A stretch of 64,000 nucleotides of DNA from a virus (taxonomy: Duplodnaviria; Heunggongvirae; Uroviricota; Caudoviricetes): positions 2,713-66,712 of IMG/VR virus record IMGVR_UViG_2910649936_000002; one strand, written 5' to 3'. A program made the position numbers and the translations under genes. Numbering within the stretch: position 1 is the stretch's first letter; the number at the start of each line of letters is the position of its first letter. Below, in pieces: positions 1,706-60,959 of the stretch. The notes beneath the pieces were generated by a model that was not told where the DNA came from, searched no databases, and saw only the letters and a list, made by a program, of their open reading frames with translations.

Positions 1706-4700
1706 CTACATAGATTTTCTATCTCTAATTTCCGCATTTTTAGCTTCATTATATCTAGTATCTCCATGTACTCTTGTAAACCCTAAGTATCCATTCATCC
1801 TATCGATTTTAGTAATATCTTTACTTCCACAAACGGGACATTCGCTCATATTTAATTCTTCATGTCCGCAATGCTCACAATATGCAAGTGAAAGATTTAC
1901 ACCCTCATAAAAACCTTTTTTCATAGCTCTACGAATCAATGTTACTACAGCTTCTTTATTATAATTTACAGGATAACGACAATATTGAATTTTCCCACCA
2001 TTAAAGTAATTCCAGAATCTTTCTTCATAGTCTTGTTTTTCTATTGGAGTAATATCTTCCGATACATGGCAATGAAATGAATTTGATACGTATTCTCTAT
2101 CAGATACATTTTCAATAATTCCATATTGTTTTCTGAATTGTTGTACTTGCAATCCGCATAAGCTCTCAGCAGGCGTTCCGTAAATTGCATATAACAATTT
2201 ATCTTCTTCTTTGAACTGATTGATTTTCTTATTTATATATTTCATTACTTCAAGAGCAAATTCACCATCTTCAATAATGGATTTCCCGTTATATAGTTCT
2301 TGAAGTTCATTTAACGCGGTAATACCAAAGGATAATGTCATTGGTTTGAGGATGGATTTAATTTTATCTGTTGGTTTTAATGTTCCTCCATATAATCCAC
2401 CTTCACAAAACGCAACCGGATTTACAGAAGCTTTTATTTCTCCAATATAATCATATGTTCTTTTATGAAGATTACGGATCATTTCAAGATAATAATCCAG
2501 AACTTCCCAAAAATCTTTAGACTCATTTCTTGATTTTGCAAGAATCATCGGCAAATGTAGGCTAACAACGCCTAAGTTAAATCTACCTTCAAATACCGCT
2601 TTATCATTTTCATCCGCCGACTCCATTCCGCCCCTTTCATACCACGGAGAAAGAAATGCTCTGCAATTGTGAGAATAAACACCACTAACTTCAAAATGGC
2701 TACTATCTGTTTCGACATCATAGCTATAGTCATTTTTTTGAACTTTATTCACACTTACTACTGTTGAAATCTGATGATTTCTTTCTGAAAAGCTTTCAGT
2801 ATAATTATTACGTTTTTTCTCACAAGCAATGTATTCAATAAGTTTATTATCTGGATAAAATTCTATTCTATATCTAATAAGAGTTGGGTTATTTGAATTA
2901 TAATGGTTATAATATACTTTTGCAGGCATTCCCAGAGATTGCGCAAGAGCCATTTGTTGTAATGCAAGTTCTTTATTTGTAGATCTAATTTGTACAACAG
3001 ACCCACCGTGTGAATTCGGGTTAATATATCCATCTGCATCAATCATACCAGCAAGAAATGCATATTTACTTTCATTATTCCAGGAAAACACTTCATTAGG
3101 AATATGCCTATTCTTTTTATTTATTCCTCCGAACATACTAGTAAAATAATTAATGGCATACTGAAGATTTGATTTGTCATCTGCAATAGTACATATATCT
3201 TTATAATTCCCTTTACTTCCTCTATTTTGATTTACTATTTTTGAGTCTAATGAAAAATATTTTTTCATCGTAGATATATATTTTTCTGCAATTTCGTTTT
3301 CACCATTTTCTGCAATTGATATAAAAACATGATTATTTTGATAGCATCCATCACAAAGCACTACGCCTAACAACCAAGCTTTATCGGTATTGAATATAAT
3401 GTTTTCTTGATTATATTGTTCTGAATTTATATATATATTATCGTTGCAATTTAATTCGCAAACTTCTTTTGTAATTCCAGAACATGTGGTTATTTTATGA
3501 TCTGATGTGCAAAGTAGTCTTCGCCCGTTTGATAATTGAACATCTACCCATTCATCTGATAAATTACGAATAATCTTTTTTGTATTTACAAATCCATTTT
3601 TCGTGTCATATATCAAAACATCTTTTAATTCCATGTACAAATGTGGTTGACCTACTATTTGCTGTTTTACTTCAAAATGGTCAGTAAGCCTATTCCACAT
3701 ACGTTCGAAAGATTCCACATATAGTTTATCATTAAATTGATATGTTATTACTTCTTTGCCATCAACGCATCCCATTGGACTAACTACCTCGCCATATTTC
3801 TTGTACATACTCGGCACGTATCCTTCACCCGTAAGGGAAAGCCAGTCTGGGTACATAGTTTTCATGCTACACTCAACCCCGGCATTAAACACATCTTCGT
3901 TAATGCAACCTTTACCGTGCAAATTTTCATCATATAAAAACACTAACTTTGGAAATAAAACTGGTTTTTTAAAGCCCTTTTTTCCCTGTCCTTCTTTATG
4001 CACATTTAAAAATGTAATTGAAGCCATCTTTCCAAACTTACTTGTATCAAGACCAAATGTCATTGTAACGAAGGGATAGTCCCCTCTGGAACTGCCAACC
4101 GTGTTTAACTTATATTCAATTCCTTGCCACCCCTGTTCAAAATCTCTTTGGACTTTATTCGTAGCATACTCATTAGCAAGTTTTTCTATCGATACATCAT
4201 CGCATTTATTTTTTCTTGTTATTTCTAAATATTCCTTTTTATAACTCTCAAAGCTCTTTTTGGCATACGGTACTAAAATCGTATCAACTCTTGGAACTGT
4301 AAATCCTCCGTATTGTTGTGCGGCGGTTGAAAGAATAATATCACCCATAACATCAAATGCAGTGTCAAGTGAATTCGGCTCATTATACCATACGTTACCC
4401 ATTTCAAAGCCATCTTTCATCACTTCCCCAACTCGGAACAGACAGCAATTAAACGTGTCTCTTCTAGCAGCCATATCATGCACATATATATATCCGTCAT
4501 TGCATGCTTGCTTTTCATCCGTTGTCATAAAGAATTTCTGATACAATGCTTTATTTAAAACATTAAATACAAGACTTCGTTTTGTAGCTACTAAAGCAGA
4601 ATCAGTATTGGCATTGTCTTTATCACCTATATACATAATAGATTGACTTTTTTCATATACATCATCCATCATTTTTACAAAATCCAATTTATAATTTCTG

Positions 4701-4960
4701 TATTCTTGATATGATTTTCCTACCTCTGGATACATATTAAGCAATGTTTGCTCTACTACATTATGTACAAAACCAATCGGAACTTCCTCATCATCAAAAT
4801 TTTCAGCTTCTATTTCTTCATAAACTCTATTACATATAATTGCATAATCATGATCTGTCAAGGTTATCAATGCTCTTTTTGCAGCTTTTGTCACGGCATT
4901 AATTATCTTTTGCTCATCATAATCTTGCAGCGTATTATCCTTCTTAATAACTTTTAGCAA
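1706..4960 (-). CDS. nrdD: Anaerobic ribonucleoside-triphosphate reductase NrdD, interrupted by a LAGLIDADG intein
   Basis: N-terminal ATP cone (VIKKDNTLQDYDEQKIINAV). C-terminal Zn ribbon CEHCGHEELNMSECPVCGS and glycyl-radical region MNGYLGFTRVHG. Likely TTG start preceded by AGGAGG. An approximately 368-aa insertion lies between SPMG|C and VYSHN|C. Confidence 0.9.
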   Translation of the reverse strand: MLKVIKKDNTLQDYDEQKIINAVTKAAKRALITLTDHDYAIICNRVYEEIEAENFDDEEVPIGFVHNVVEQTLLNMYPEVGKSYQEYRNYKLDFVKMMDDVYEKSQSIMYIGDKDNANTDSALVATKRSLVFNVLNKALYQKFFMTTDEKQACNDGYIYVHDMAARRDTFNCCLFRVGEVMKDGFEMGNVWYNEPNSLDTAFDVMGDIILSTAAQQYGGFTVPRVDTILVPYAKKSFESYKKEYLEITRKNKCDDVSIEKLANEYATNKVQRDFEQGWQGIEYKLNTVGSSRGDYPFVTMTFGLDTSKFGKMASITFLNVHKEGQGKKGFKKPVLFPKLVFLYDENLHGKGCINEDVFNAGVECSMKTMYPDWLSLTGEGYVPSMYKKYGEVVSPMGCVDGKEVITYQFNDKLYVESFERMWNRLTDHFEVKQQIVGQPHLYMELKDVLIYDTKNGFVNTKKIIRNLSDEWVDVQLSNGRRLLCTSDHKITTCSGITKEVCELNCNDNIYINSEQYNQENIIFNTDKAWLLGVVLCDGCYQNNHVFISIAENGENEIAEKYISTMKKYFSLDSKIVNQNRGSKGNYKDICTIADDKSNLQYAINYFTSMFGGINKKNRHIPNEVFSWNNESKYAFLAGMIDADGYINPNSHGGSVVQIRSTNKELALQQMALAQSLGMPAKVYYNHYNSNNPTLIRYRIEFYPDNKLIEYIACEKKRNNYTESFSERNHQISTVVSVNKVQKNDYSYDVETDSSHFEVSGVYSHNCRAFLSPWYERGGMESADENDKAVFEGRFNLGVVSLHLPMILAKSRNESKDFWEVLDYYLEMIRNLHKRTYDYIGEIKASVNPVAFCEGGLYGGTLKPTDKIKSILKPMTLSFGITALNELQELYNGKSIIEDGEFALEVMKYINKKINQFKEEDKLLYAIYGTPAESLCGLQVQQFRKQYGIIENVSDREYVSNSFHCHVSEDITPIEKQDYEERFWNYFNGGKIQYCRYPVNYNKEAVVTLIRRAMKKGFYEGVNLSLAYCEHCGHEELNMSECPVCGSKDITKIDRMNGYLGFTRVHGDTRYNEAKNAEIRDRKSM
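2666..3769 (-). mobile_element. Intein with LAGLIDADG homing-endonuclease domain inside nrdD
   Basis: Begins CVDGKEVITY and ends VYSHN followed by +1 Cys. Two LAGLIDADG-type motifs (LLGVVLCDGC, LAGMIDADGYI). The host sequence flanking it is contiguous NrdD. Confidence 0.75.
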
Positions 4961-9537: not shown

Positions 9538-12500
9538 TCATACTTGATTCTCCTTAATTGAATCTGGCAAAGACATCCACGTTTGTCTTGAAGTATTATG
9601 ATTTGTACGAATACATCTCATGAACGCTTGTGGCTCAGCTAGTAAAAGACATCTTGTCTTTGCCCGTGTTAATAATGTATATAACATACAGTTGTCTAAA
9701 AGCGTATAATGTTGTTTATCAATAATACCTATTACTGTTCTAAAGCCCGATCCTTGGCAATTCCATGCGCTAAATCCATTTTGTACAAATTGATGTGTTT
9801 TTGGCATTTCAATACAATATGTTTGTGCTATTGTAGTGTGTATATCTTTAACCTTTTGGATACTTGTATTATGATATAAATAGTCTAAATATTTTACATC
9901 GTTATTGTAAATATTATTTTCATTACAGAATTGCAAGAATAATTTTAAAGATGCGTAACTAATATTTCTTCTGTCTTTTCGCATTATTTTATATGAGATT
10001 TTATTTCTTGGAATGTTATAATCTTTAACAATTTTTTCTATTATATTTTTGATGTATGGGATAGCATAATTACTAGAAGTCTTTCCAGTTTGTTCGTAAT
10101 ATTTATAGGATTTTTTCTCTTTCTCGTTGCTAATAAATCCAATTGTTTTTATAAATTTATCGCAATCAGTACCATATAAAAAGAGGTTATAACTTATTGC
10201 ATTTGTTCCATTTGGACAACAAGTGCTACGTTTCAATTTGGTTGATATAATTCCCATATTTAATAACAACATTTGTATTTGATTAACCAATTTCTCACAT
10301 GCAGACGTAAACGATATATGTTCGAATTTATTATTTTTCACACACACACTTCCGTCTTCAAACACTCCACGCAAAAATTCAATTTGAATCTCTTTTGGTG
10401 CTGACATTATTACATGTGGTACAAATTTATTGTTTGGTTGTATCCCGTCAATGTTTTCGCAAAAAGCCTTAATGTGTTTTGATGAAATTTCACTTAGATA
10501 CATTCCTCCCATTGTACCACCAGGAAGTACATTGCGTGGTTCCTTCGCTTTATACCCAAATATTTGATATATTACATTATTAAAATCCAGAACTACGTTT
10601 TTATGGTTTTTTCCGTATTTAATTCCGTGGTTTGACACTACTCCATCTGCAACCATATAACCTAAAAACCTAGCAAATTCTTTTGTTAAATACGTTGGGA
10701 TTTCATAAATTGAAGTTCTAATATCAAGCGTACTTAAATCAACCTTCCAATTATCTGGTAATGATATCTTATCTCCGTATATATTAGAATTTTTTATAAT
10801 CACAACATAATCATCATTAGTGATATCTTTAGCATATTTAGGAATAATATATCCGTCCTTACCTAAGACATTTATTTTATGGTCTGGAGTCGCCGTTAGT
10901 GAATACCCACGTTGAGAAGAAATAATAAGACACTCTGATATACCGGCATTATAAAATGCTTTTGGTTTTTCTAACTCATATCCATTATAAACATATGGAA
11001 CATCATCATTTAATATTTTTGATTCATATTTACCTGCATTATTATTCAGTTCATTTAATTCTATGATACCATTTGTGCTAAATAACATTGTGTCTTCTGT
11101 AACGCACTTATGGCATGTCATAGCATATGCTAGTTCAATTTCAGAAAGTTCATTCATCTTATATTCGACTATCTTCTTTCTGTCAAATGATACGGCTAAA
11201 TCATTATACTCAACTTCACAATACTTCACTTTTTTCTTTTCTTCATTTTTTTCTCCAATATACGTTATATAACCTATTTCTCCATTAAAAATATTTTTTT
11301 CATAGTTGTTAGTTATCTGCATAACTTTTGCTCCAAGTTTAAAAACTGTTTCTCCATATGAGATAAATTTAGACTCACTGCCTAATAATTTTTCTTGAAT
11401 AATTTTATTTAATTCTATGGAACTATTTATACAATTCTGTTTTCTTGGAGTAATAATGACGACCTCTCCTATATCTTCTGTTTCAATAGATTTTAAAAAA
11501 GTTTGAATTGCAATATTCTGTAATGCTTCTCTATTGTCTCGGAACATATAGTACATATCTTTTAATTTTCCACGTATAATTTTTAATGAAGGTTCACTCA
11601 AAGGACTGATACCGTCTCTTATGAGATTTGCATCAGATAAAATACCTGATAATTCTGCCTGTCGCATTGGTTTGGTAAGTTGATAAGAATTGAATTCAGA
11701 TCTGTGTATAATGTCAGAAAATACATTGCCATATCCAATTGGTGGTAGTTGCATATGATCTCCACATATAATTATTCTGGTTGTATCATTAACAGCCTCC
11801 AATAAAGAAAGAAACAATCCTGCGTTAATCATACTTCCTTCGTCAATAAGCAGAACATCTGTAGGCAATGGATTTTGGAAATTATATGTGAATTCATTTA
11901 GCCCCTGTGAACCAAGTAAGCGATGAATCGTGGATGAAGCAAATCCTGTTGCTTCTGTAATTCTCTGCGCTGCCTTTGCTGATAAGGCACAAGTAGAAAT
12001 TCTATAATTAAACCCTTGATAGACTTTGAGGATGCCTCTTGATATTGAACTTTTCCCTGTCCCAGCTTTTCCTGAAATTATAATGAGGTTGGATTGTATT
12101 GACTGTGTAATAACATTTTTTTGTTCTTCGGTATATTGAAACCCCTGTTCTTTCTCAGCTTCTTTGATATATTCATCAACTTTATTATCATCTTCTATCA
12201 CAACTATATGATTATCCAAGTTTTGCTTTGATACTAGGATATTAAATATTTTTTCTTCAATATGTCTATATTCTTTTGATCCAACTTTATCTTCTTCTAT
12301 ATATAAGAAAGTATTATGTTCTAACAAATCATCTAATAAATTGTAACACTCTGGAATTGTATCACTAATAGCATTTTTTAAATTATTTATATACACCCAT
12401 GTATGTCCACCGCTCTCTCCGCACTCTTTTAAGTAAAACATAATAAAGGCAGTCAACCGATGGTTCGACACCCGTAAATCTGGTTTGATTTTTAATGCCA

Positions 12501-13164
12501 TATCATCAATTCTTTTAAATCCAAGACCTTTGATTGCTTTAACCATGATATAAGGATTTTCTTTTAACTTTTGTTTAAGCAATGATGGATTTGGTTCTGC
12601 GTCAAGAAGTCTTTTAATCATATTGAAGGTCACACCCATTGGTTGCAATAGAGTAATAATGTCCGAAATGATATAATTTTTTATAATAGACTCTCTGATT
12701 TTATCCCAAGTTTTTTTCCCAACCCCACGAATTTTATCATACTCTAAATCTATCAGCCCACCATTCATAACATCTTCAATCACATTGGGATATTCGTATA
12801 AGATATTATCAGCGATGGATTCAGAAGATACTAATGATTTTAAAAATAGTTTCTGTTCTTCTTGAGATTGCGGTATTATCGCGATAATGGATATGGGTAC
12901 ATATTGATATTGATGGAATTTTTCATTATACTCACATCTCGCTTTTACGAGATATTCCGAACCTACATATAACTGTTGCATTTTACCAGCTATTGTACTC
13001 ATTTTTTGCGTAACCGCTTTATCGTCAAGTGGATCTTTATATTCTAAGTATTCTGGGATCTTATCTTTTGTAGTAAAATTAAATACACCCCAAGAAGTGT
13101 CTTCGTTGTAATATCGCTCACTCACAGGAACCATTTTAAATTCTAATATTTCCATATTATCCAT
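9538..13164 (-). CDS. RecD/Dda-like SF1 DNA helicase, interrupted by a LAGLIDADG intein
   Basis: HhH (GVGKKTWDKI). Walker A GKAGTGKSS. Motif II LLIDEGSM. Motif III CGDHMQLPPIG. Motif VI (AMTCHK|...|CQGSGF) is split by a 449-aa insertion. Confidence 0.8.
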   Translation of the reverse strand: MDNMEILEFKMVPVSERYYNEDTSWGVFNFTTKDKIPEYLEYKDPLDDKAVTQKMSTIAGKMQQLYVGSEYLVKARCEYNEKFHQYQYVPISIIAIIPQSQEEQKLFLKSLVSSESIADNILYEYPNVIEDVMNGGLIDLEYDKIRGVGKKTWDKIRESIIKNYIISDIITLLQPMGVTFNMIKRLLDAEPNPSLLKQKLKENPYIMVKAIKGLGFKRIDDMALKIKPDLRVSNHRLTAFIMFYLKECGESGGHTWVYINNLKNAISDTIPECYNLLDDLLEHNTFLYIEEDKVGSKEYRHIEEKIFNILVSKQNLDNHIVVIEDDNKVDEYIKEAEKEQGFQYTEEQKNVITQSIQSNLIIISGKAGTGKSSISRGILKVYQGFNYRISTCALSAKAAQRITEATGFASSTIHRLLGSQGLNEFTYNFQNPLPTDVLLIDEGSMINAGLFLSLLEAVNDTTRIIICGDHMQLPPIGYGNVFSDIIHRSEFNSYQLTKPMRQAELSGILSDANLIRDGISPLSEPSLKIIRGKLKDMYYMFRDNREALQNIAIQTFLKSIETEDIGEVVIITPRKQNCINSSIELNKIIQEKLLGSESKFISYGETVFKLGAKVMQITNNYEKNIFNGEIGYITYIGEKNEEKKKVKYCEVEYNDLAVSFDRKKIVEYKMNELSEIELAYAMTCHKCVTEDTMLFSTNGIIELNELNNNAGKYESKILNDDVPYVYNGYELEKPKAFYNAGISECLIISSQRGYSLTATPDHKINVLGKDGYIIPKYAKDITNDDYVVIIKNSNIYGDKISLPDNWKVDLSTLDIRTSIYEIPTYLTKEFARFLGYMVADGVVSNHGIKYGKNHKNVVLDFNNVIYQIFGYKAKEPRNVLPGGTMGGMYLSEISSKHIKAFCENIDGIQPNNKFVPHVIMSAPKEIQIEFLRGVFEDGSVCVKNNKFEHISFTSACEKLVNQIQMLLLNMGIISTKLKRSTCCPNGTNAISYNLFLYGTDCDKFIKTIGFISNEKEKKSYKYYEQTGKTSSNYAIPYIKNIIEKIVKDYNIPRNKISYKIMRKDRRNISYASLKLFLQFCNENNIYNNDVKYLDYLYHNTSIQKVKDIHTTIAQTYCIEMPKTHQFVQNGFSAWNCQGSGFRTVIGIIDKQHYTLLDNCMLYTLLTRAKTRCLLLAEPQAFMRCIRTNHNTSRQTWMSLPDSIKENQV
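9760..11106 (-). mobile_element. Intein with LAGLIDADG endonuclease inside helicase motif VI
   Basis: Starts CVTEDTMLFSTNG and ends FSAWN with +1 Cys. LAGLIDADG motifs FLGYMVADGVV and FLRGVFEDGSV. Removing it restores the helicase HK(S/C)QGS motif. Confidence 0.7.
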
Positions 13165-39527: not shown

Positions 39528-42086
39528 TTATATATTCTCTGTAGGCACACTCATTTTTTTACCAATTATTTCTACTACCGGAACCGTCACACCATTCCCT
39601 GCCTGTTTATACAATTGACTGTCACTATTCACAAACGCTGCGCGTTCAAAATAATCATCTGTCCATCCTTGCAGGCGGAAACATTCGCGAGGCGTTAAGC
39701 GGCGGATTGCTATATAGCACTGGTATTTTTCGTACCAAACGGCGTAACAGATATCTCCATTCGGAAGCTGAATATAGATTCCATCACCGTAGTCACCATG
39801 TGTATCACATTTCAATGCAAATAGATTGTCCTTTTGCACCGAATCAATCGTGTTTGAACATCCATCTGCTCTTACTTCGTGTTCAAGAAATGTATGCCTA
39901 CTGACTTTTAATTTCCCTGATTCATAATCTTTTCTTATTTTCTTCCCATACTCATTTCTTGTAGTCCTCAGACACCCCAAAGGTGATATAGCTACGCCAT
40001 GCCTATCCTGTGCCGTCAGCGTAAACATCGGTTCTCCATTTTCTTTAAATCTACGTCCATTCTGGCGTTTTTCTGCTCTATCTGGTGTGAGGACCGGGAT
40101 CGCAACCTTCGGCTCATTCCCTGAATGTCCGCAACCAATAATAGTTCTTGAAATGCTACCATTCCCATGAACAACTTTGTGTTGATTATAATTGTTGCCT
40201 GGCAATTCAAAGTCTTCGCTTATTTTTATCCCCACACTCGGCTCTCTGCCACCGCCCTGCATAGTTCCTAATGCAGGACTTATTCCGTCTTTGTCGTAAA
40301 CTCTGTAAGCATTTGGATTTTTCCTTTTACTTTCCATCATTCCTATCTGGCGAATACTATTTTCTCCATCCGCTCCCGTGACAGGAAGTATTTTTGCTCT
40401 ACCGAATCTTCTAAGATGTCCGACAGTGTATATCCGCTCCCGGTGCTGCGGGACGTACCACTCGCTATGTATATTTTGCCATTCGATATCATACCCAAGT
40501 CTGTCCAATTCAGAGAGGATTGACAGATAGTCGAGTCCTCTGTTGCTAGAAAGCATTCCTTTAACATTTTCATAGATAAGCCATTCAGGTCTGTTTTCTT
40601 CTTTTTGTTCTTCCAGCAGTCTAAAAATTTCTCGTATAAGGCTTGATCTGTCACCTTCAAGCCCTGCTCGTTTTCCGGCGATGGAGAAGTCCTGACAGTT
40701 GTGGACTCCCATATTGTTGGCTGTGTAGCTGTTGTCATTTTCTACCTCCATGTTGTACACAATTTCTTTTCTTTTTGGATTATATTCAATATTTTTTACT
40801 GGTTGCCATAAACACCCATCAATAAAATAAGATAGGCTTTTTATGCTATTCGGTCTGAAAATAATCCGCCATGTATCTTTCTGATTTACAATGCGATTTT
40901 CTATAATATGCTGTTTTAGCTTCTCTGTGTAATAAATGCTATATCCAACATGATGCACTTTAGAAACGCATTCGCCCAATTGATATGCAAGTTTTTTACT
41001 TATAGTCGTCGCTTTCCATACGCCGCATGAGTAACTTCCATCTCCGCTTAAATATCCATTAAGGAAATACTTTAAATGATCGGTGTCCAAATCCATAATA
41101 AACTGTGGAATTGTTTTATTCTCTGCGCCACGTCCGCATTTCAAACACAAAGAAAATAACCTATTGTCTTTTATAATATATTTTGTAACTGATTTTCCAA
41201 TAGATATATGCATCTTGAACGATTTACTACGAGATTTAAACTCATCTTCCTTTCCGTCCCCTATGCAGAAAATAACTCTTCTATCACTCGATGGTCTGTC
41301 ATTCCTTTTACTGTCTCTTAAATATCCATCAGCAACATACCTACCAAGAATCCAACACTCATCTTCTGTTAAATCATAAATATTCTTATTGTTGTTATTG
41401 ACAGTAAACTGAATAAGTTCATTTCCATCAAATTTTTGTACTTCTTTCCAATACGGATCGGAAATTTTTATTTCATATTTTCGTAGTTCATTATTCCATG
41501 TTTTTATTTTGTCTCTTACATAAAACCTATGATTCCCAGTCACTTCTGTTATCGGACTTCCTTGCACTTTTAGAGTATATATTCCCCTTTTGACATTAAC
41601 CATTGGTTTTATAACACGCTGCCATCTATTCTTATGAGTGAGAACCATATCGCCGCTTTGGATTTCTTCTATCGGTATTTTTCCCCTATGAGTGGTGATT
41701 AATGTCCCTTTTACAAAACAAGGCGCTCCGAAGCACCAGCAGTCTACTGCCGGAAGATCTTTGACTCGTACTGCTCTAATGTCATTTGCGTACCATTCTC
41801 CATTACGGTATTCCTCCTTTAAAATTTCTTTTTGTCTTTTCTTTAATGGTAATGTCTTTAAATATTCTCTCTGTTCATCGGTTATCAAGTGCATAGATGT
41901 GTAACTTGCCGTTGCGAACTTATCCCACTCGCAAAATCCAACGCATTCATGTCCTGCCAGTTCCATTCCACGCCGGAAACCGCCGATTCCGGCAAAAAAG
42001 TCTATAAATTTTAATTTCTTTTTGTTACTGTTGGAATAATATATGTTATCTCCTCCTCCATTCCTCATCAAATTCTGATTATTCAT
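39528..42086 (-). CDS. DNA (cytosine-5)-methyltransferase interrupted by a LAGLIDADG intein at the catalytic PC motif
   Basis: Motif I IDFFAGIGGF. Motif IV split as FGAP | intein | CQDFSIAGK. ENVKGM (VI), QHRERIY (VIII), GNGVTVPV (X). Confidence 0.85.
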   Translation of the reverse strand: MNNQNLMRNGGGDNIYYSNSNKKKLKFIDFFAGIGGFRRGMELAGHECVGFCEWDKFATASYTSMHLITDEQREYLKTLPLKKRQKEILKEEYRNGEWYANDIRAVRVKDLPAVDCWCFGAPCFVKGTLITTHRGKIPIEEIQSGDMVLTHKNRWQRVIKPMVNVKRGIYTLKVQGSPITEVTGNHRFYVRDKIKTWNNELRKYEIKISDPYWKEVQKFDGNELIQFTVNNNNKNIYDLTEDECWILGRYVADGYLRDSKRNDRPSSDRRVIFCIGDGKEDEFKSRSKSFKMHISIGKSVTKYIIKDNRLFSLCLKCGRGAENKTIPQFIMDLDTDHLKYFLNGYLSGDGSYSCGVWKATTISKKLAYQLGECVSKVHHVGYSIYYTEKLKQHIIENRIVNQKDTWRIIFRPNSIKSLSYFIDGCLWQPVKNIEYNPKRKEIVYNMEVENDNSYTANNMGVHNCQDFSIAGKRAGLEGDRSSLIREIFRLLEEQKEENRPEWLIYENVKGMLSSNRGLDYLSILSELDRLGYDIEWQNIHSEWYVPQHRERIYTVGHLRRFGRAKILPVTGADGENSIRQIGMMESKRKNPNAYRVYDKDGISPALGTMQGGGREPSVGIKISEDFELPGNNYNQHKVVHGNGSISRTIIGCGHSGNEPKVAIPVLTPDRAEKRQNGRRFKENGEPMFTLTAQDRHGVAISPLGCLRTTRNEYGKKIRKDYESGKLKVSRHTFLEHEVRADGCSNTIDSVQKDNLFALKCDTHGDYGDGIYIQLPNGDICYAVWYEKYQCYIAIRRLTPRECFRLQGWTDDYFERAAFVNSDSQLYKQAGNGVTVPVVEIIGKKMSVPTENI
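40698..41720 (-). mobile_element. Intein with LAGLIDADG endonuclease inserted immediately before the catalytic Cys of the C5-MTase
   Basis: Starts CFVKGTLITTHRGK and ends GVHN with +1 Cys, which is the PCQ catalytic cysteine. LAGLIDADG motifs ILGRYVADGYL and FLNGYLSGDGSY. Confidence 0.75.
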
Positions 42087-43702: not shown

Positions 43703-44368
43703 TCACCCATCATGTCTCCAATCATTTTGTACACTTTTAATAGATATCCCAGATTCTTCTATCTTAATCCATTCATCTAAAGTTAAAGGAATATAATTTG
43801 AATACATACAAAAACAATTAATCATATTAATCGGTGCCGGGGACGGATTATCAGAACTTCTACTTATTCTCGGAAAACCTCTTACAAACTCCTTATAATG
43901 TTCTACGCCAACTACATCTGGAGTCTTGTGGATATGGCCATGAAGCATATATGTTTTTGGATTTCCATTTTTATCTCGTCGAAATTGTCCATTATAGCAC
44001 ATCACTGGGTAATGGCAGCATATAACCTTTCTTCCATTATCATTCAACTCCATATAATAGTCGATCCGTTCAAACCTATCTTTATTAAATTCTCTTTTTA
44101 GCACAGCTTTATCATGATTTCCAATACACAACCATAAGCGACCGTTCAACTTATCTATCAACCTATTCGTTTCTTCTACATTACCAATTGATAGATCTCC
44201 CAAAATAATGACTTCTTCTTTTTTCCTTACTCTTGAATTCCATTGTTGAAGCATGAATTCATTCATTTCTTCCATGCTTTTAAACCCTCGCTTATCCATT
44301 CTAGTATTCATGTTAGTATGAAAGAAATGATTGTCTGCAATATAATATCTCATAAATAACAACCTCAT
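43703..44368 (-). CDS. Calcineurin-like metallophosphoesterase
   Basis: Metallophosphoesterase motifs DNHFFH (DxH), ILGDLSIGN (GD), GNHD, HGHIH. Confidence 0.7.
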   Translation of the reverse strand: MRLLFMRYYIADNHFFHTNMNTRMDKRGFKSMEEMNEFMLQQWNSRVRKKEEVIILGDLSIGNVEETNRLIDKLNGRLWLCIGNHDKAVLKREFNKDRFERIDYYMELNDNGRKVICCHYPVMCYNGQFRRDKNGNPKTYMLHGHIHKTPDVVGVEHYKEFVRGFPRISRSSDNPSPAPINMINCFCMYSNYIPLTLDEWIKIEESGISIKSVQNDWRHDG

Positions 44369-45111
44369 AAGATTCTAATAATCTGTTCATATAAACAAAT
44401 TGATTTTTCAGAATCAAAATTTTGATTTACATGCATATGTCCAAAGAACCATTTTCTATAATCAATAGCTTCTTTAATCTTTTGTAGATAGTCTGTTAAT
44501 CTATCTGTCTGATATATTGTCGGATTACTATCCATCATTCTTAAAAGTGATGTACATGGAGAATGTGTCACAATAAAATCAACTTTATTATTTGATTTCT
44601 CCAGATTATCCCATCCATTTTGCATTTCCTCTTCGCTTGGCAGTTCTCTTTCCCACCATGACACATGATTAATTCTAAACTGCTTACTATAGTCATATCG
44701 CCATTTTTTAATACGTGGATCGCCTATTTCTAAAACGCCATCTCGAATATCATGGCTACTTGCACCACCAAAAGTGAAAAATGTTTTCCCGGATATGTCA
44801 TAAATCTTACCTCTCATCAAATGGATTACTGACGGTCTGAGAAAATGTACCTTCCCGTTATGCCATTCGGATACAGGGAGATTATCAAGTATGTCGTAAT
44901 TTTCGTGATTTCCGTCCACAAATAATGTAGTAAATAGTTTATCTTCTAGCCAATCCAGATTATATTTCTCTCTCTTAGAATCATCCCAGATACCGAAGTC
45001 ACCGCAGATAATCACGTAATCGTCTTTTGTCATTTCATCTTGTTCTGGGAATGCTCTCTTATTTAGCCTCCCCATCCAGTCTCCATGTGTGTCACCCGTT
45101 ATATAAACCAT
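44365..45111 (-). CDS. PPP-family (lambda-phosphatase/ApaH-like) metallophosphoesterase
   Basis: GDTHGD (GDxHG), CGDFGIWDD (GDxxDRG-like), DGNHENY (GNHE), FGHMHV. Its stop overlaps the next gene's start. Confidence 0.7.
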   Translation of the reverse strand: MVYITGDTHGDWMGRLNKRAFPEQDEMTKDDYVIICGDFGIWDDSKREKYNLDWLEDKLFTTLFVDGNHENYDILDNLPVSEWHNGKVHFLRPSVIHLMRGKIYDISGKTFFTFGGASSHDIRDGVLEIGDPRIKKWRYDYSKQFRINHVSWWERELPSEEEMQNGWDNLEKSNNKVDFIVTHSPCTSLLRMMDSNPTIYQTDRLTDYLQKIKEAIDYRKWFFGHMHVNQNFDSEKSICLYEQIIRIL

Positions 45112-45846: not shown

Positions 45847-47040
45847 TCAATACTTCATTTTTTCTCTCTCCCGTACTTTCTCACGTGTTTCCCCATAACT
45901 AAAATACGTCTTATCAAAATCATAATTCATACCCCATACATCATCATTCAAGTATTCATTCATGTGTGTTATAGCAAGTGAACAGTTTGTATAAGGATAT
46001 GGCTGTTCTGCTATTAATTGAAAATCTTCTAATACTCTTTGTATTAATCTTTCAATATCAATGAATCCATATCTCAATGTTCCTTGATGTGGATTTGGGA
46101 CATTTGTATAATCAACCATATCTCTATTAATATCTGCTTTTTCACACTCATCCTCCAGACGTCCAACTCCATGACGTGTTATATATGTTCTTGTGACATA
46201 GCATGTTTCTATATTAATCTTCTCTTTTGGAAAAGTATTTCCAATAATTTCTAACGGATTTTTGACACCTGTGTTACTTGGCGTAAGATGGGGATAATAT
46301 GTTCCATTATTCTGGTCAAGAAGCAATCCCTGTCCATTTTCAAAGATAATATTGGCATAATGGCATAATATTTCATCTCCGCACTTATTTATACAGTCCT
46401 TCATGAAATAAATATCATCTATATATCTGTCAATTAATCCTATACTATAAACAATTTCATCCCATTCCGATTTGTTGATATCTATATTTTCTTCTTTTAG
46501 CTTTTCTAAAAAGTATTCATCTCTAATTCTATATAATAGATTTCGTATATCATCGCTACCTAATACGAATAACTGTGATAGACAAAGATTATATTTTGGA
46601 TAATGACATCGTTTTAAAGTTTCATAAATCCCAACACCACAACTACCGTGTCTATCTTCAGACCGCTTCTCTTCAATCATTTGATTTAAAATCATATCAA
46701 ATGGTGTGGAAATCTTACATAAAGGATGCACATATACTTTTGGAATGAATCCGATTTCATTAAGCTCTTTCCACTCTTGGCAAAATATCATAGGATTTAA
46801 AATAAAATATTTAGAAAGATATGTATGAGCATTATTAAATATTCCAGAGCCAAAATGATGGAAAACATGCCTTATATTATCAGGAGTTGTTACTGTATGA
46901 CCTCTTTGCGCTTCTCCATTGCTACACACAACAATGCAATTTTCATTTTGCATAGCTGCCTGGTTAGAAAAATAATCTGTCATAAATCCCTTTCCCTCGT
47001 CGCCAAAATTAGCACCAATAACAATTTTTATATTCGTCAT
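45847..47040 (-). CDS. Adenylosuccinate synthetase homolog (PurA/PurZ family)
   Basis: P-loop GDEGKGF (PurA GDEGKGK). NGEAQRGHT (PurA GG-x-NAGHT). GSCGVGIYET (PurA GTTGRGIGPAYEDK). YVTRTYITRHGVG (PurA TTGRRRRTGW region). 397 aa, which is shorter than bacterial PurA. Confidence 0.75.
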   Translation of the reverse strand: MTNIKIVIGANFGDEGKGFMTDYFSNQAAMQNENCIVVCSNGEAQRGHTVTTPDNIRHVFHHFGSGIFNNAHTYLSKYFILNPMIFCQEWKELNEIGFIPKVYVHPLCKISTPFDMILNQMIEEKRSEDRHGSCGVGIYETLKRCHYPKYNLCLSQLFVLGSDDIRNLLYRIRDEYFLEKLKEENIDINKSEWDEIVYSIGLIDRYIDDIYFMKDCINKCGDEILCHYANIIFENGQGLLLDQNNGTYYPHLTPSNTGVKNPLEIIGNTFPKEKINIETCYVTRTYITRHGVGRLEDECEKADINRDMVDYTNVPNPHQGTLRYGFIDIERLIQRVLEDFQLIAEQPYPYTNCSLAITHMNEYLNDDVWGMNYDFDKTYFSYGETREKVREREKMKY

Positions 47041-58637: not shown

Positions 58638-58709
58638 AAAATCCCAATTGAGCTAATCGGATTCGAACCGATAAATACATGAATCAAAGTCATGTGCCTT
58701 ACCTTTTGG
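58638..58709 (-). tRNA. tRNA-Gln (anticodon UUG)
   Basis: Minus-strand sequence TGAGCTA TT GCC..GGC A CATGA CTTTGAT TCATG TATTT ATCGG TTCGAAT CCGAT TAGCTCA A. It has a 7-bp acceptor stem, a 5-bp anticodon stem with a 7-nt loop (anticodon TTG), and a T-arm GGTTCGAATCC. CCA is not encoded. Confidence 0.7.
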
Positions 58710-58772
58710 CAATAGCTCATTACATATTTCTATATTTAATTGTTAAAAAATTTGAAAATTTTGCAGAAACGC

Positions 58773-59972: not shown

Positions 59973-60959
59973 TTAGATTTCACTCAAATCTATCCCATAG
60001 CTTCCTTGAATATACCACTTTTTCGTTGTATCTACACTAGATTGTCCCATCTGTTGCTGTGCAAAGACTGCACCAAAATTTTTTGACATTGTAGAAGCAT
60101 ACCAGTGTCGCAACATATGTGGCGTAATCCCATTGCCATATGTTTTAAATATATCCTTGATAGTTCCTTCCGTTACACGTCCACCACGCCTGGTAATATA
60201 TAATGCATTTTTCGACTCTTCATTGATATATGGAATCTTATTCCTTATTTCTAGCCAACGCTCAATTGCTTTAACGGACTTTCCAGTTAGTAACACACGT
60301 CTTTTTTCACACTCACGATTCTTCCCCTTACCTAATATCAGAATGAATGCACGTTTCTCATTATCATCACCATTTAAAAAAACATCATCTAAGTCAAGAT
60401 TAGCAAGTTCAGTTTCCCTAATTCCAGTTCCCTTTAATAAATTAAAGATAGATAAATTTCGCTCTCTTACCATTTCATCTTTTTTCTTAGACATTTTTTC
60501 TTCAATTAAATTTAATTCTGCAACATCAGGCACAACCGCAATATTAATATTTCCAGAAATCCCTTTGTATCCAGATTTTGATACAACATTTGTTATAACT
60601 GGACATTTATTTGTATCTACTAAATATCCCCAAAAACTTTGCAAACGATTCTTATATACTTCCACTGATGTAGGACTGTATCCTCTTTTCTCTTCTAAAT
60701 CCGTAAGATATTGTTTAATATCTTCAGCTTCTACTTCCATCATGTCTCCTGGTTCAATATCTGAAATGTTCAATTTTTTAATAATTTTACGAGCAATACA
60801 ATCATTTAAAAAATCCCTAATCGTAGTATAATAATCACGTTTTGATTTAGTGCTATTTAATCGAATAAAAAAGCGTGTAATAAATTCCGGTATCTTAGCT
60901 TCTTCAAATTTCCTGTTTAACTGCTCATTTTCTTTTTTTCTAACTTCATCTTTATACAT
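59973..60959 (-). CDS. Tyrosine site-specific recombinase/integrase (XerD-like)
   Basis: Catalytic residues in context: GTGIRETEL (Arg), GKGKNRE (Lys), HMLRHWYAS (His-x-x-Arg), KKWYIQGSY (Tyr). Confidence 0.8.
   Translation of the reverse strand: MYKDEVRKKENEQLNRKFEEAKIPEFITRFFIRLNSTKSKRDYYTTIRDFLNDCIARKIIKKLNISDIEPGDMMEVEAEDIKQYLTDLEEKRGYSPTSVEVYKNRLQSFWGYLVDTNKCPVITNVVSKSGYKGISGNINIAVVPDVAELNLIEEKMSKKKDEMVRERNLSIFNLLKGTGIRETELANLDLDDVFLNGDDNEKRAFILILGKGKNRECEKRRVLLTGKSVKAIERWLEIRNKIPYINEESKNALYITRRGGRVTEGTIKDIFKTYGNGITPHMLRHWYASTMSKNFGAVFAQQQMGQSSVDTTKKWYIQGSYGIDLSEI

Follow-up and report, generated by a model that had tools for sequence, protein, structure and literature searches.

A putative LAGLIDADG intein at the catalytic cysteine of a prophage cytosine-5 DNA methyltransferase is a typical member of a common but unannotated phage intein family

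Inteins are already on record in the DNA methyltransferases of phages. Two mycobacteriophage DNA methylase families (DNMT-1/2), both of the N6_N4 type, contain inteins (Kelley et al. 2016, PMC5050341), horizontal transfer and within-gene recombination have been found for an actinophage methylase that harbors two further insertions besides its intein (2023, PMC9957025), and a 2025 preprint includes 'DNA methylase ... C-5 (IPR001525)' among the intein hosts of actinobacteriophages, in passages that give neither the insertion sites nor the sequences (bioRxiv 10.1101/2025.01.02.630785). Here we analyze a cytosine-5 (C5) DNA methyltransferase gene that is split by an in-frame insertion and is located in a 64,000-nucleotide (nt) stretch of DNA from a Caudoviricetes virus (positions 2,713 to 66,712 of IMG/VR record IMGVR_UViG_2910649936_000002). 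This whole stretch is called the window, and all coordinates refer to it. Our analysis indicates that the insertion is very probably a selfish, mobile class-1 LAGLIDADG intein lodged between the Pro and Cys of motif IV, termed here the PC site, of a prophage C5 methyltransferase.

The window gene resembles the mycobacteriophage DNMT-1/2 genes in that each is a phage methyltransferase with a LAGLIDADG intein near conserved residues (PMC5050341). The intein of Pacc40 gp60 is a detectable relative of the window intein (27% identity, E 6e-35), but its host is of the N6_N4 type (PF01555) rather than the C5 type (PF00145), and its junctions, ...QMHV^C...VVKN^CPLQF (^ marks an intein boundary), have a penultimate Lys where the window intein has His. 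The actinobacteriophage C-5 methylases listed in the preprint passages share the host family IPR001525 with the window gene, and their bacterial hosts are Actinobacteria rather than a gut bacterium of the Lachnospiraceae. The same type of junction as in the window, GFP^C...VHN^CQ(D/A/S), occurs in the C5 methyltransferases of the phages Nyseid, A4 and 587AP2. Among inteins with solved structures, the endonuclease-containing TliVMA (7qsu/7qss), PI-SceI (1vde/1lws), PhoVMA (7qst), PI-PfuI (1dq3) and PI-PkoII (2cw7) have the same Hint domain with a nested two-motif LAGLIDADG domain, and they share Cys1, TxxH, the terminal HN and a +1 Cys with the window intein. This likeness (Foldseek E 2e-19 to 2e-10, TM score 0.54-0.68) comes with an identity of only 11-17%, and while the solved inteins reside in V-ATPase and DNA polymerase hosts, the window intein resides in a DNA methyltransferase, follows a Pro at -1 and is more compact at 341 amino acids (aa). 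Finally, intein 1 of M. smegmatis DnaB also sits in an active-site region and also makes host activity dependent on splicing; conditionality was demonstrated experimentally for that intein (PMC6195587), whereas the sequence of the window intein gives no sign of it. Full-text searches of the literature yielded no paper that describes a C5 methyltransferase with an intein at its PC motif, the nearest being the one-line actinophage C-5 listing; papers on phage CB7, Thermus phages and Porphyromonas CRISPR were set aside as irrelevant to the PC-site intein. Thus, the kind of intein is known and its C-5 host family is already on record, but the PC site appears to be undescribed in print though it is abundant in databases.

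The precursor is encoded by one open reading frame (ORF) with the following layout.

39528-42086, minus strand: precursor ORF, 852 aa, C5 DNA methyltransferase split by an intein
41721-42086, minus strand: N-extein, aa 1-122, with Pro as the -1 residue
41976-41999, minus strand: motif I FFAGIGGF, in the N-extein
41721-41735, minus strand: CFGAP, the N-terminal half of motif IV at the end of the N-extein
40698-41720, minus strand: predicted class-1 intein, 341 aa (precursor aa 123-463), from Cys1 to His340-Asn341
41691-41720, minus strand: intein block A CFVKGTLITT; C1, G5, T6 and T10 invariant in the 25-sequence alignment
41718-41720, minus strand: Cys1 codon of the intein
41523-41540, minus strand: intein block B TGNHRF (TxxH: Thr61, His64); T61 and H64 invariant
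40851-41405, minus strand: predicted LAGLIDADG homing-endonuclease domain, approximately intein aa 106-290, with I-DmoI and PI-PkoII matches
41319-41354, minus strand: LAGLIDADG motif 1 WILGRYVADGYL, intein aa 123-134, with VADG and Asp131; D131 and G132 invariant
41031-41072, minus strand: LAGLIDADG motif 2 KYFLNGYLSGDGSY, intein aa 217-230, with SGDG and Asp227
40698-40760, minus strand: intein blocks F and G, VYNMEVENDNSY and TANNMGVHN; His340 penultimate and Asn341 terminal, both invariant
40695-40697, minus strand: +1 Cys codon, precursor Cys464 and spliced Cys123; predicted splicing nucleophile and catalytic Cys of motif IV (PCQ)
39528-40697, minus strand: C-extein, aa 464-852 plus the stop codon, starting with CQDFSIAGK (C-terminal half of motif IV)
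40557-40580, minus strand: motif VI ENV, in the C-extein
40428-40451, minus strand: motif VIII PQHRER, in the C-extein
39663-39704, minus strand: motif IX RRLTPRECFRLQGW, in the C-extein
39576-39611, minus strand: motif X GNGVTVPV, in the C-extein

The reading frame is uninterrupted across all 852 codons, and a 100% identical copy of the precursor, shortened to 846 aa by a start at Met7, is deposited at NCBI under the title 'DNA (cytosine-5-)-methyltransferase [Mediterraneibacter sp. NSJ-55]' and lies on a 1.96-Mb contig. The N-junction reads ...PAVDCWCFGAP^CFVKGTLITTHRG..., the intein beginning with CFVKGTLITT, and the C-junction reads ...SYTANNMGVHN^CQDFSIAGKRAGLEG..., the C-extein beginning with CQDFSIAGK; for the ligated exteins a junction peptide ...CFGAPCQDFSIAGK is predicted. 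An earlier note on this DNA had placed an intein at 40698-41720 and had estimated a precursor of about 98 kDa and a product of about 58 kDa. These boundaries (precursor aa 123-463) are exact to the base. By calculation the precursor has a mass of 98.3 kDa, of which splicing would leave 58.4 kDa as the ligated product and release 39.9 kDa as the intein, in agreement with both estimates. The G+C content is 0.40 and 0.43 in the exteins, 0.34 in the intein and 0.33 in the window as a whole, a contrast which suggests that the methyltransferase gene and the intein differ in their histories from the phage backbone.

By the sequence of its exteins, the host protein is a C5 methyltransferase. Specifically, Pfam model PF00145 (C-5 DNA methylase) matches the precursor in two stretches that flank Hint_2 and Intein_splicing, and the match becomes continuous (E 1.8e-55 for the spliced extein) once the 341 aa are removed in silico. 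The precursor also matches the TIGR00675 / dcm superfamily of NCBIfam (E 1.9e-53), and motifs I (FxGxG), IV (PCQ), VI (ENV), VIII (QxRxR), IX and X are all present in canonical order, with a long variable target-recognition region in the C-extein between motifs VIII and IX. In an alignment with M.HhaI over motifs I, IV-VIII and IX-X, spliced Cys123, the intein +1 residue, falls on Cys81 of M.HhaI (GAPCQDFS versus GFPCQAFS). Cys81 of M.HhaI is the nucleophile that attacks C6 of cytosine. By this alignment the +1 residue of the intein is the catalytic Cys of motif IV, which bears out the earlier proposal of an insertion exactly at the PC dipeptide. Because the +1 Cys and the catalytic Cys are one residue, methyltransferase activity must be splicing-dependent from the position of the intein alone.

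Several lines of evidence identify the insert. Hint_2 (Pfam) matches it above the cut-off (E 2e-9 to 3e-9). Its middle part matches an archaeal DNA polymerase II model (NCBIfam) where that model contains an intein, and among PDB sequences it aligns with PI-PkoII in the endonuclease region (E 7e-5), the two LAGLIDADG motifs falling in register. An alignment of 25 non-redundant inteins of this site, which are 32-76% identical to the window intein, has Cys1, Gly5, Thr6, Thr61, His64, Asp131-Gly132 and His340-Asn341 as invariant residues. Both LAGLIDADG motifs retain their acidic residue (Asp131 and Asp227), giving the two-helix form of a LAGLIDADG homing endonuclease in which each motif has a catalytic acidic residue. 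An AlphaFold (AF2) model of the intein built on the 25-sequence alignment has a mean predicted local distance difference test score (pLDDT) of 93.8 and a predicted TM score (pTM) of 0.89. When this model was compared with PDB by Foldseek, the top 16 matches were all endonuclease-containing inteins, with TliVMA 7qsu as the best match (E 2e-19, TM score 0.68) and PI-SceI, PhoVMA, PI-PfuI and PI-PkoII also among them; the central domain of the model matches monomeric LAGLIDADG enzymes such as I-DmoI (E 3e-6). The features of a class-1 intein that can be recognized at the sequence level, namely Cys1, TxxH, HN^Cys, the Hint fold and a precise in-frame insertion, are all present. By sequence and predicted fold, the insert is a class-1 intein with a two-motif LAGLIDADG endonuclease. 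The earlier note had called this segment an intein with two LAGLIDADG motifs, and both parts of that call hold, the first on Hint_2, the Cys1/TxxH/HN^C residues, the fold and the intein-less homologs, and the second on the alignment of both motifs to PI-PkoII.

Alleles that lack the intein define the insertion point. The intein-less homologs P0052, P0093, P0101, P0113 and P0120, whose identity to the window protein reaches 69% in the aligned parts of the exteins, read ...CFGAPCQDFSIAGKRAGL... (GAPCQDFS) without a gap. The earlier note had named, as grounds for its own refutation, homologs in which the segment proves to be an ordinary domain of such methyltransferases; these homologs run through GAPCQDFS uninterrupted, and that objection therefore falls away. 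At the DNA level, the empty sites in loci L001 and L003 read GGAGC(G/A)CC(A/T)^TGCCAGGA(C/T), and the corresponding empty site of the window gene with its exteins joined reads GGAGCGCCT^TGTCAGGAC. The joined window exteins agree with the empty sites at 71/90 nt (L001) and 66/90 nt (L003), with mismatches mostly at third-codon (synonymous) positions. Relative to these two alleles the intein is an exact in-frame block of 1023 nt. Intein-less methyltransferase alleles are common and occur in phage contexts comparable to that of the window.

The same insertion is widespread. Among the 120 nearest homologs of the precursor, 113 have an intein at the same Pro-Cys junction and 5 are empty, and the inteins fall into a class of 335-345 aa (the window type), a divergent class of 319 aa (~36% identical) and mini-inteins of 164-166 aa that lack the endonuclease domain. 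When the intein alone was searched against 1.84 billion cluster representatives (clusters at 50% identity), 5606 proteins matched at E<=1e-3, 2051 at E<=1e-10 and 541 at E<=1e-30, the last of which puts the intein call far beyond chance. Junctions in these protein sets were counted by hidden Markov model (HMM) envelope: in the best 150 representatives, one per 50%-identity cluster, Pro occupies -1 in 135 of the 144 N-junctions, and CQ or CT follows the intein in at least 128, which reads as motif IV of very diverse C5 methyltransferases. In IMG/VR, where a regular expression was used and the count is a lower bound, complete PC-site junctions are present in at least 28 of the best 80 phage loci. 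Genome-resolved PC-site inteins were found in Lachnospiraceae, other Clostridia, a Bacillota (Pseudogracilibacillus) metagenome-assembled genome, Campylobacterota and Flavobacteriales, and more distant relatives of the intein are present in other host proteins, e.g. SufB. Cultured phages also have it, specifically Lactobacillus phage Nyseid (AUV59832.1, GFP^C...VHN^CQDIS in a C5 methyltransferase), Escherichia phage A4 (USL83787.1, Asteriusvirus) together with related jumbo phages (GFP^C...VHN^CQAWS), and Mannheimia phage vB_MhS_587AP2. The inteins of Nyseid, A4 and 587AP2 are 30.5-31.5% identical to the window intein, and the records mention only the methyltransferase ('DNA-cytosine methyltransferase') and not the intein. 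A megablast of the gene against GenBank phages gave a single partial match of 243 nt, which indicates that the window gene has no close cultured relative there, and an exact 47-mer spanning the N-junction had 0 matches in species-representative genomes. The earlier note had also described methyltransferase inteins as rare. This part does not stand, as a same-site intein is present in 113/120 nearest homologs and P^C(Q/T) junctions in at least 128/150 cluster representatives, and as inteins are already listed in N6/N4 methylases (PMC5050341) and in C-5 methylases (bioRxiv 10.1101/2025.01.02.630785). With an insertion that recurs so often in phage genomes, where it goes unannotated, the window intein is an ordinary example of a selfish element rather than a rare one.

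Some individual members of this family deserve mention. In Mannheimia phage vB_MhS_587AP2 (L168, KP137435.1 26087-30106) the gene is given as two coding sequences, 'hypothetical protein' and 'cytosine-specific DNA methyltransferase', and the frame that follows the intein meets a stop (CQSDKGG...FEWRE and then the stop), so that the C-extein frame appears broken, either because the gene has decayed or through a fault in sequencing or annotation. In this phage the methyltransferase is adjoined by a gene for an HNH homing endonuclease. Proteins P0122 and P0140 have a related intein at a second C5 methyltransferase site, right after motif VI (VWENV^C...VHN^CGAFSSN), and P0122 appears to have inteins at both sites.

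Comparison of alleles also provides evidence for mobility. The metagenomic alleles L004 and L005 have inteins with 1 mismatch in 1023 nt, and this near-identity is limited to -64 to +11 nt around the intein, with exteins that beyond these points are ~82% identical and an N-extein synonymous divergence (dS) of 1.6. Such a pattern is the signature expected of homing with short co-conversion tracts and of a recent horizontal transfer. A different mixture is seen when alleles with the 319-aa intein are compared with the window protein, as identity is ~80% in the N-extein and motifs IX-X but only ~47% in motifs IV-VIII and ~36% in the intein; by this comparison the methyltransferase gene is a mosaic. 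When the window is compared with L004, the ratio of nonsynonymous to synonymous divergence (dN/dS) is low in both splicing halves (Hint-N 0.074, Hint-C 0.043) and in the endonuclease domain (0.089), a sign of purifying selection. C-extein values are 0.15-0.33; a segment of the last 70 residues, out of register between alleles with different C-termini, was left out. N-extein dS is saturated and gives no dN/dS against the window. The low dN/dS suggests that the endonuclease is functional now or was so recently. All stages of a homing cycle are present in the family, as there are empty alleles, full inteins, a decayed copy (P0024, in which the second LAGLIDADG motif has decayed to SANPYN) and mini-inteins. 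The intein-bearing methyltransferase gene is found in unrelated phage backbones.

The methyltransferase is not the only gene in the window with an intein. A second one, of 368 aa (aa 398-765) and LAGLIDADG type, lies at 2666-3769 on the minus strand in the NrdD anaerobic ribonucleotide reductase ORF (1706-4960), with junctions GEVVSPMG^CVDGKEV...GVYSHN^CRAFLSPW and Pfam matches to Intein_splicing (9e-8), LAGLIDADG_3 (4e-12) and Hom_end (5e-7). Its +1 Cys is in an MGCR stretch, which we take to be the catalytic-loop cysteine of class III reductases. A third, also of LAGLIDADG type and 449 aa long (aa 687-1135), is at 9760-11106 on the minus strand in the ORF (9538-13164) of a RecD/exonuclease V-like SF1 helicase; its junctions are AYAMTCHK^CVTEDTM...NGFSAWN^CQGSGFRT, with a non-canonical penultimate Trp in place of the usual His. 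Within the 64-kb window the family HMM found no second copy of the methyltransferase-intein family, to which neither the NrdD intein nor the helicase intein is related. The presence of three inteins, each in a conserved motif of an enzyme of DNA metabolism, agrees with a known pattern of phage inteins (PMC5050341).

From established class-1 intein chemistry, the following course of events can be proposed. The 98-kDa precursor would be incapable of methylation, with the 40-kDa domain splitting its catalytic loop. An N-S acyl shift at Cys1 would be followed by attack of the thiol of the +1 Cys on the thioester and by release of the intein through cyclization of Asn341, and an S-N shift would then create a normal Pro-Cys peptide bond and free the thiol, which would serve as the methyltransferase nucleophile on cytosine C6. 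The excised intein, or the precursor, would cut intein-less alleles as a site-specific endonuclease, and repair from an intein-bearing copy would transfer the intein together with short extein flanks, i.e. homing. We propose that this insertion site is favored because motif IV is the most conserved and least mutable stretch of the gene.

Certain observations weigh against this interpretation and have to be set beside it. The Pfam Intein_splicing match (E 1e-6, 29-33 bits) is under the 35.8-bit gathering cut-off, so that it takes Hint_2, the fold, the empty-site alleles and the invariant residues combined to carry the intein call. The closest relative of the window intein is only 88% identical in DNA, and recent mobility thus holds for the intein family and not for the window copy. 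That the window copy splices and cleaves DNA is something we infer from its sequence and its model. In addition, efficient splicing cannot be assumed by analogy, as a Pro at -1 reportedly blocks or slows many inteins; a paper on engineered DnaX inteins, citing earlier studies, describes a general failure of natural and engineered inteins when Pro occupies -1 or +2 (PMC6486613). This Pro is the one unusual feature of the window intein. Motif IV imposes it on nearly all members of the PC-site family, and the retention of this Pro-Cys junction across hundreds of clusters argues that the junction works. If the family splices, as its conservation implies, it would be natively adapted to Pro(-1), at which most characterized inteins fail; and provided that it splices at all, it is nearly certain that PC-site inteins, including the mini forms of 164-166 aa, tolerate Pro at this position.

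Other explanations for the insert fare less well. That it might not be an intein, but a native accessory domain or an in-frame fused bacterial intein-like (BIL) or free endonuclease domain, is scarcely credible: a weak match of the first 70 residues to a BIL domain (2lwy, E 0.006) stands against close homologs that lack exactly this segment and have a continuous PCQ motif, canonical Cys1, TxxH and HN^Cys termini, a model that matches complete endonuclease-bearing inteins end to end, and an interruption of the most conserved catalytic motif rather than of a variable region. We therefore rejected the native-domain and BIL readings on the basis of the intein-less alleles, the canonical termini and the end-to-end intein fold. 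A dead insertion that does not splice would have inactivated the methyltransferase, with at most the endonuclease or a cleavage product being of consequence. Such an outcome might be helped by the Pro at -1, unfavorable to many inteins (PMC6486613), and by three other DNA methyltransferase genes of the phage that could make the C5 gene dispensable. It is nevertheless very unlikely, given splicing residues that are all intact and invariant across the family, an open ORF of 852 codons with methyltransferase motifs conserved on both sides of the intein, low dN/dS in both Hint halves (0.04-0.07) and in the C-extein (0.15-0.33), and a Pro-Cys junction in >130 independent clusters, which would be unexpected if it blocked splicing.

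The earlier idea that splicing is a conditional switch, in which a cue such as redox state, temperature, DNA or S-adenosylmethionine delays or gates the methyltransferase, e.g. by reversible oxidation of Cys1 and Cys+1, draws on the necessary dependence of activity on splicing, on the Cys at both junction residues, on a Pro at -1 that usually slows splicing and could build in a delay (PMC6486613), and on the existence of stress-responsive inteins, the mycobacterial DnaB intein being described as an oxidative-stress sensor (PMC6195587). We regard a regulatory switch as improbable, however. The invariant residues in the 25-intein alignment are only the standard splicing and endonuclease ones, with no conserved extra cysteine or other feature of regulated splicing in that alignment; intein-less alleles, which require no switch, are common in similar phage settings; the spread of the intein from allele to allele resembles that of a parasite, and decayed and mini forms exist; and unrelated inteins in two other essential genes of the same phage fit better with a general intein load. 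The more specific proposal that slow or redox-gated splicing, adapted to a Pro(-1)-Cys(+1) junction with a catalytic thiol, times or gates the methyltransferase during phage development has a slim chance of being correct, and if it were the intein would be partly domesticated and not purely parasitic. An ordinary homing element, as favored here, is instead indicated by the recent transfer, the decayed and mini variants and the two other inteins in the same phage.

The remainder of the window gives the context of this gene. Three more DNA methyltransferase genes are located within 8 kb of the C5 gene (34860-35891, 36678-37478 and 42256-42810, all on the minus strand), two of them N6_N4 (PF01555) and one a small NPPF-motif gene (phrog_799); this four-gene methylation cluster presumably serves anti-restriction. 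An adenylosuccinate-synthetase homolog at 45847-47040 (minus strand) matches the PurZ-type PHROG '2-aminooxy adenylosuccinate synthetase' (E 1.7e-61) and is adjoined by two phosphoesterase genes (43703-44368 and 44365-45111), and together these genes may constitute a phage pathway for DNA with 2-aminoadenine (Z base). A large replication module (DNA polymerase, DnaB-like helicase, RecJ, NAD ligase, RNA ligase, NrdD) makes up the rest. Near the right end of the window are an integrase gene (phrog_1, 59973-60959, minus strand) and a tRNA-Gln (58648-58719, minus strand), which fits a prophage. On the 100% protein match, its one basis, the window is most likely a prophage of Mediterraneibacter sp. 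NSJ-55, a gut Lachnospiraceae isolate. With regard to the methyltransferase itself, the target-recognition region between motifs VIII and IX is long and modular in P0002-P0120, with blocks that come and go between homologs. For example, the motif IPVLTPDRxxKRQNGRRFKExGEPxFTLTxQDRHGV is present in one copy in the window methyltransferase and in two copies in P0024, which suggests that target-recognition specificity modules have been shuffled.

The window intein leaves the understanding of inteins unchanged. Its family does have several properties of use. The +1 residue is the catalytic nucleophile of the host, which gives a direct functional read-out of splicing, and the native Pro at -1 makes this a junction that most engineered inteins cannot process. 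If splicing is true, a Pro(-1)-tolerant family that includes compact mini-inteins could serve protein engineering, which is of modest practical interest. One site offers a very large and diverse series of full, decayed, mini and empty alleles, together with a clear recent transfer, and the family is thereby well suited as a natural system in which to study how homing proceeds in phages of the gut. Finally, hundreds of phage and prophage C5 methyltransferases of ~650-950 aa are in effect an enzyme of ~400-550 aa plus an intein on which the public records are silent, and this intein should be allowed for when C5 enzymes are classified by size or domain and when phage methylation is predicted.

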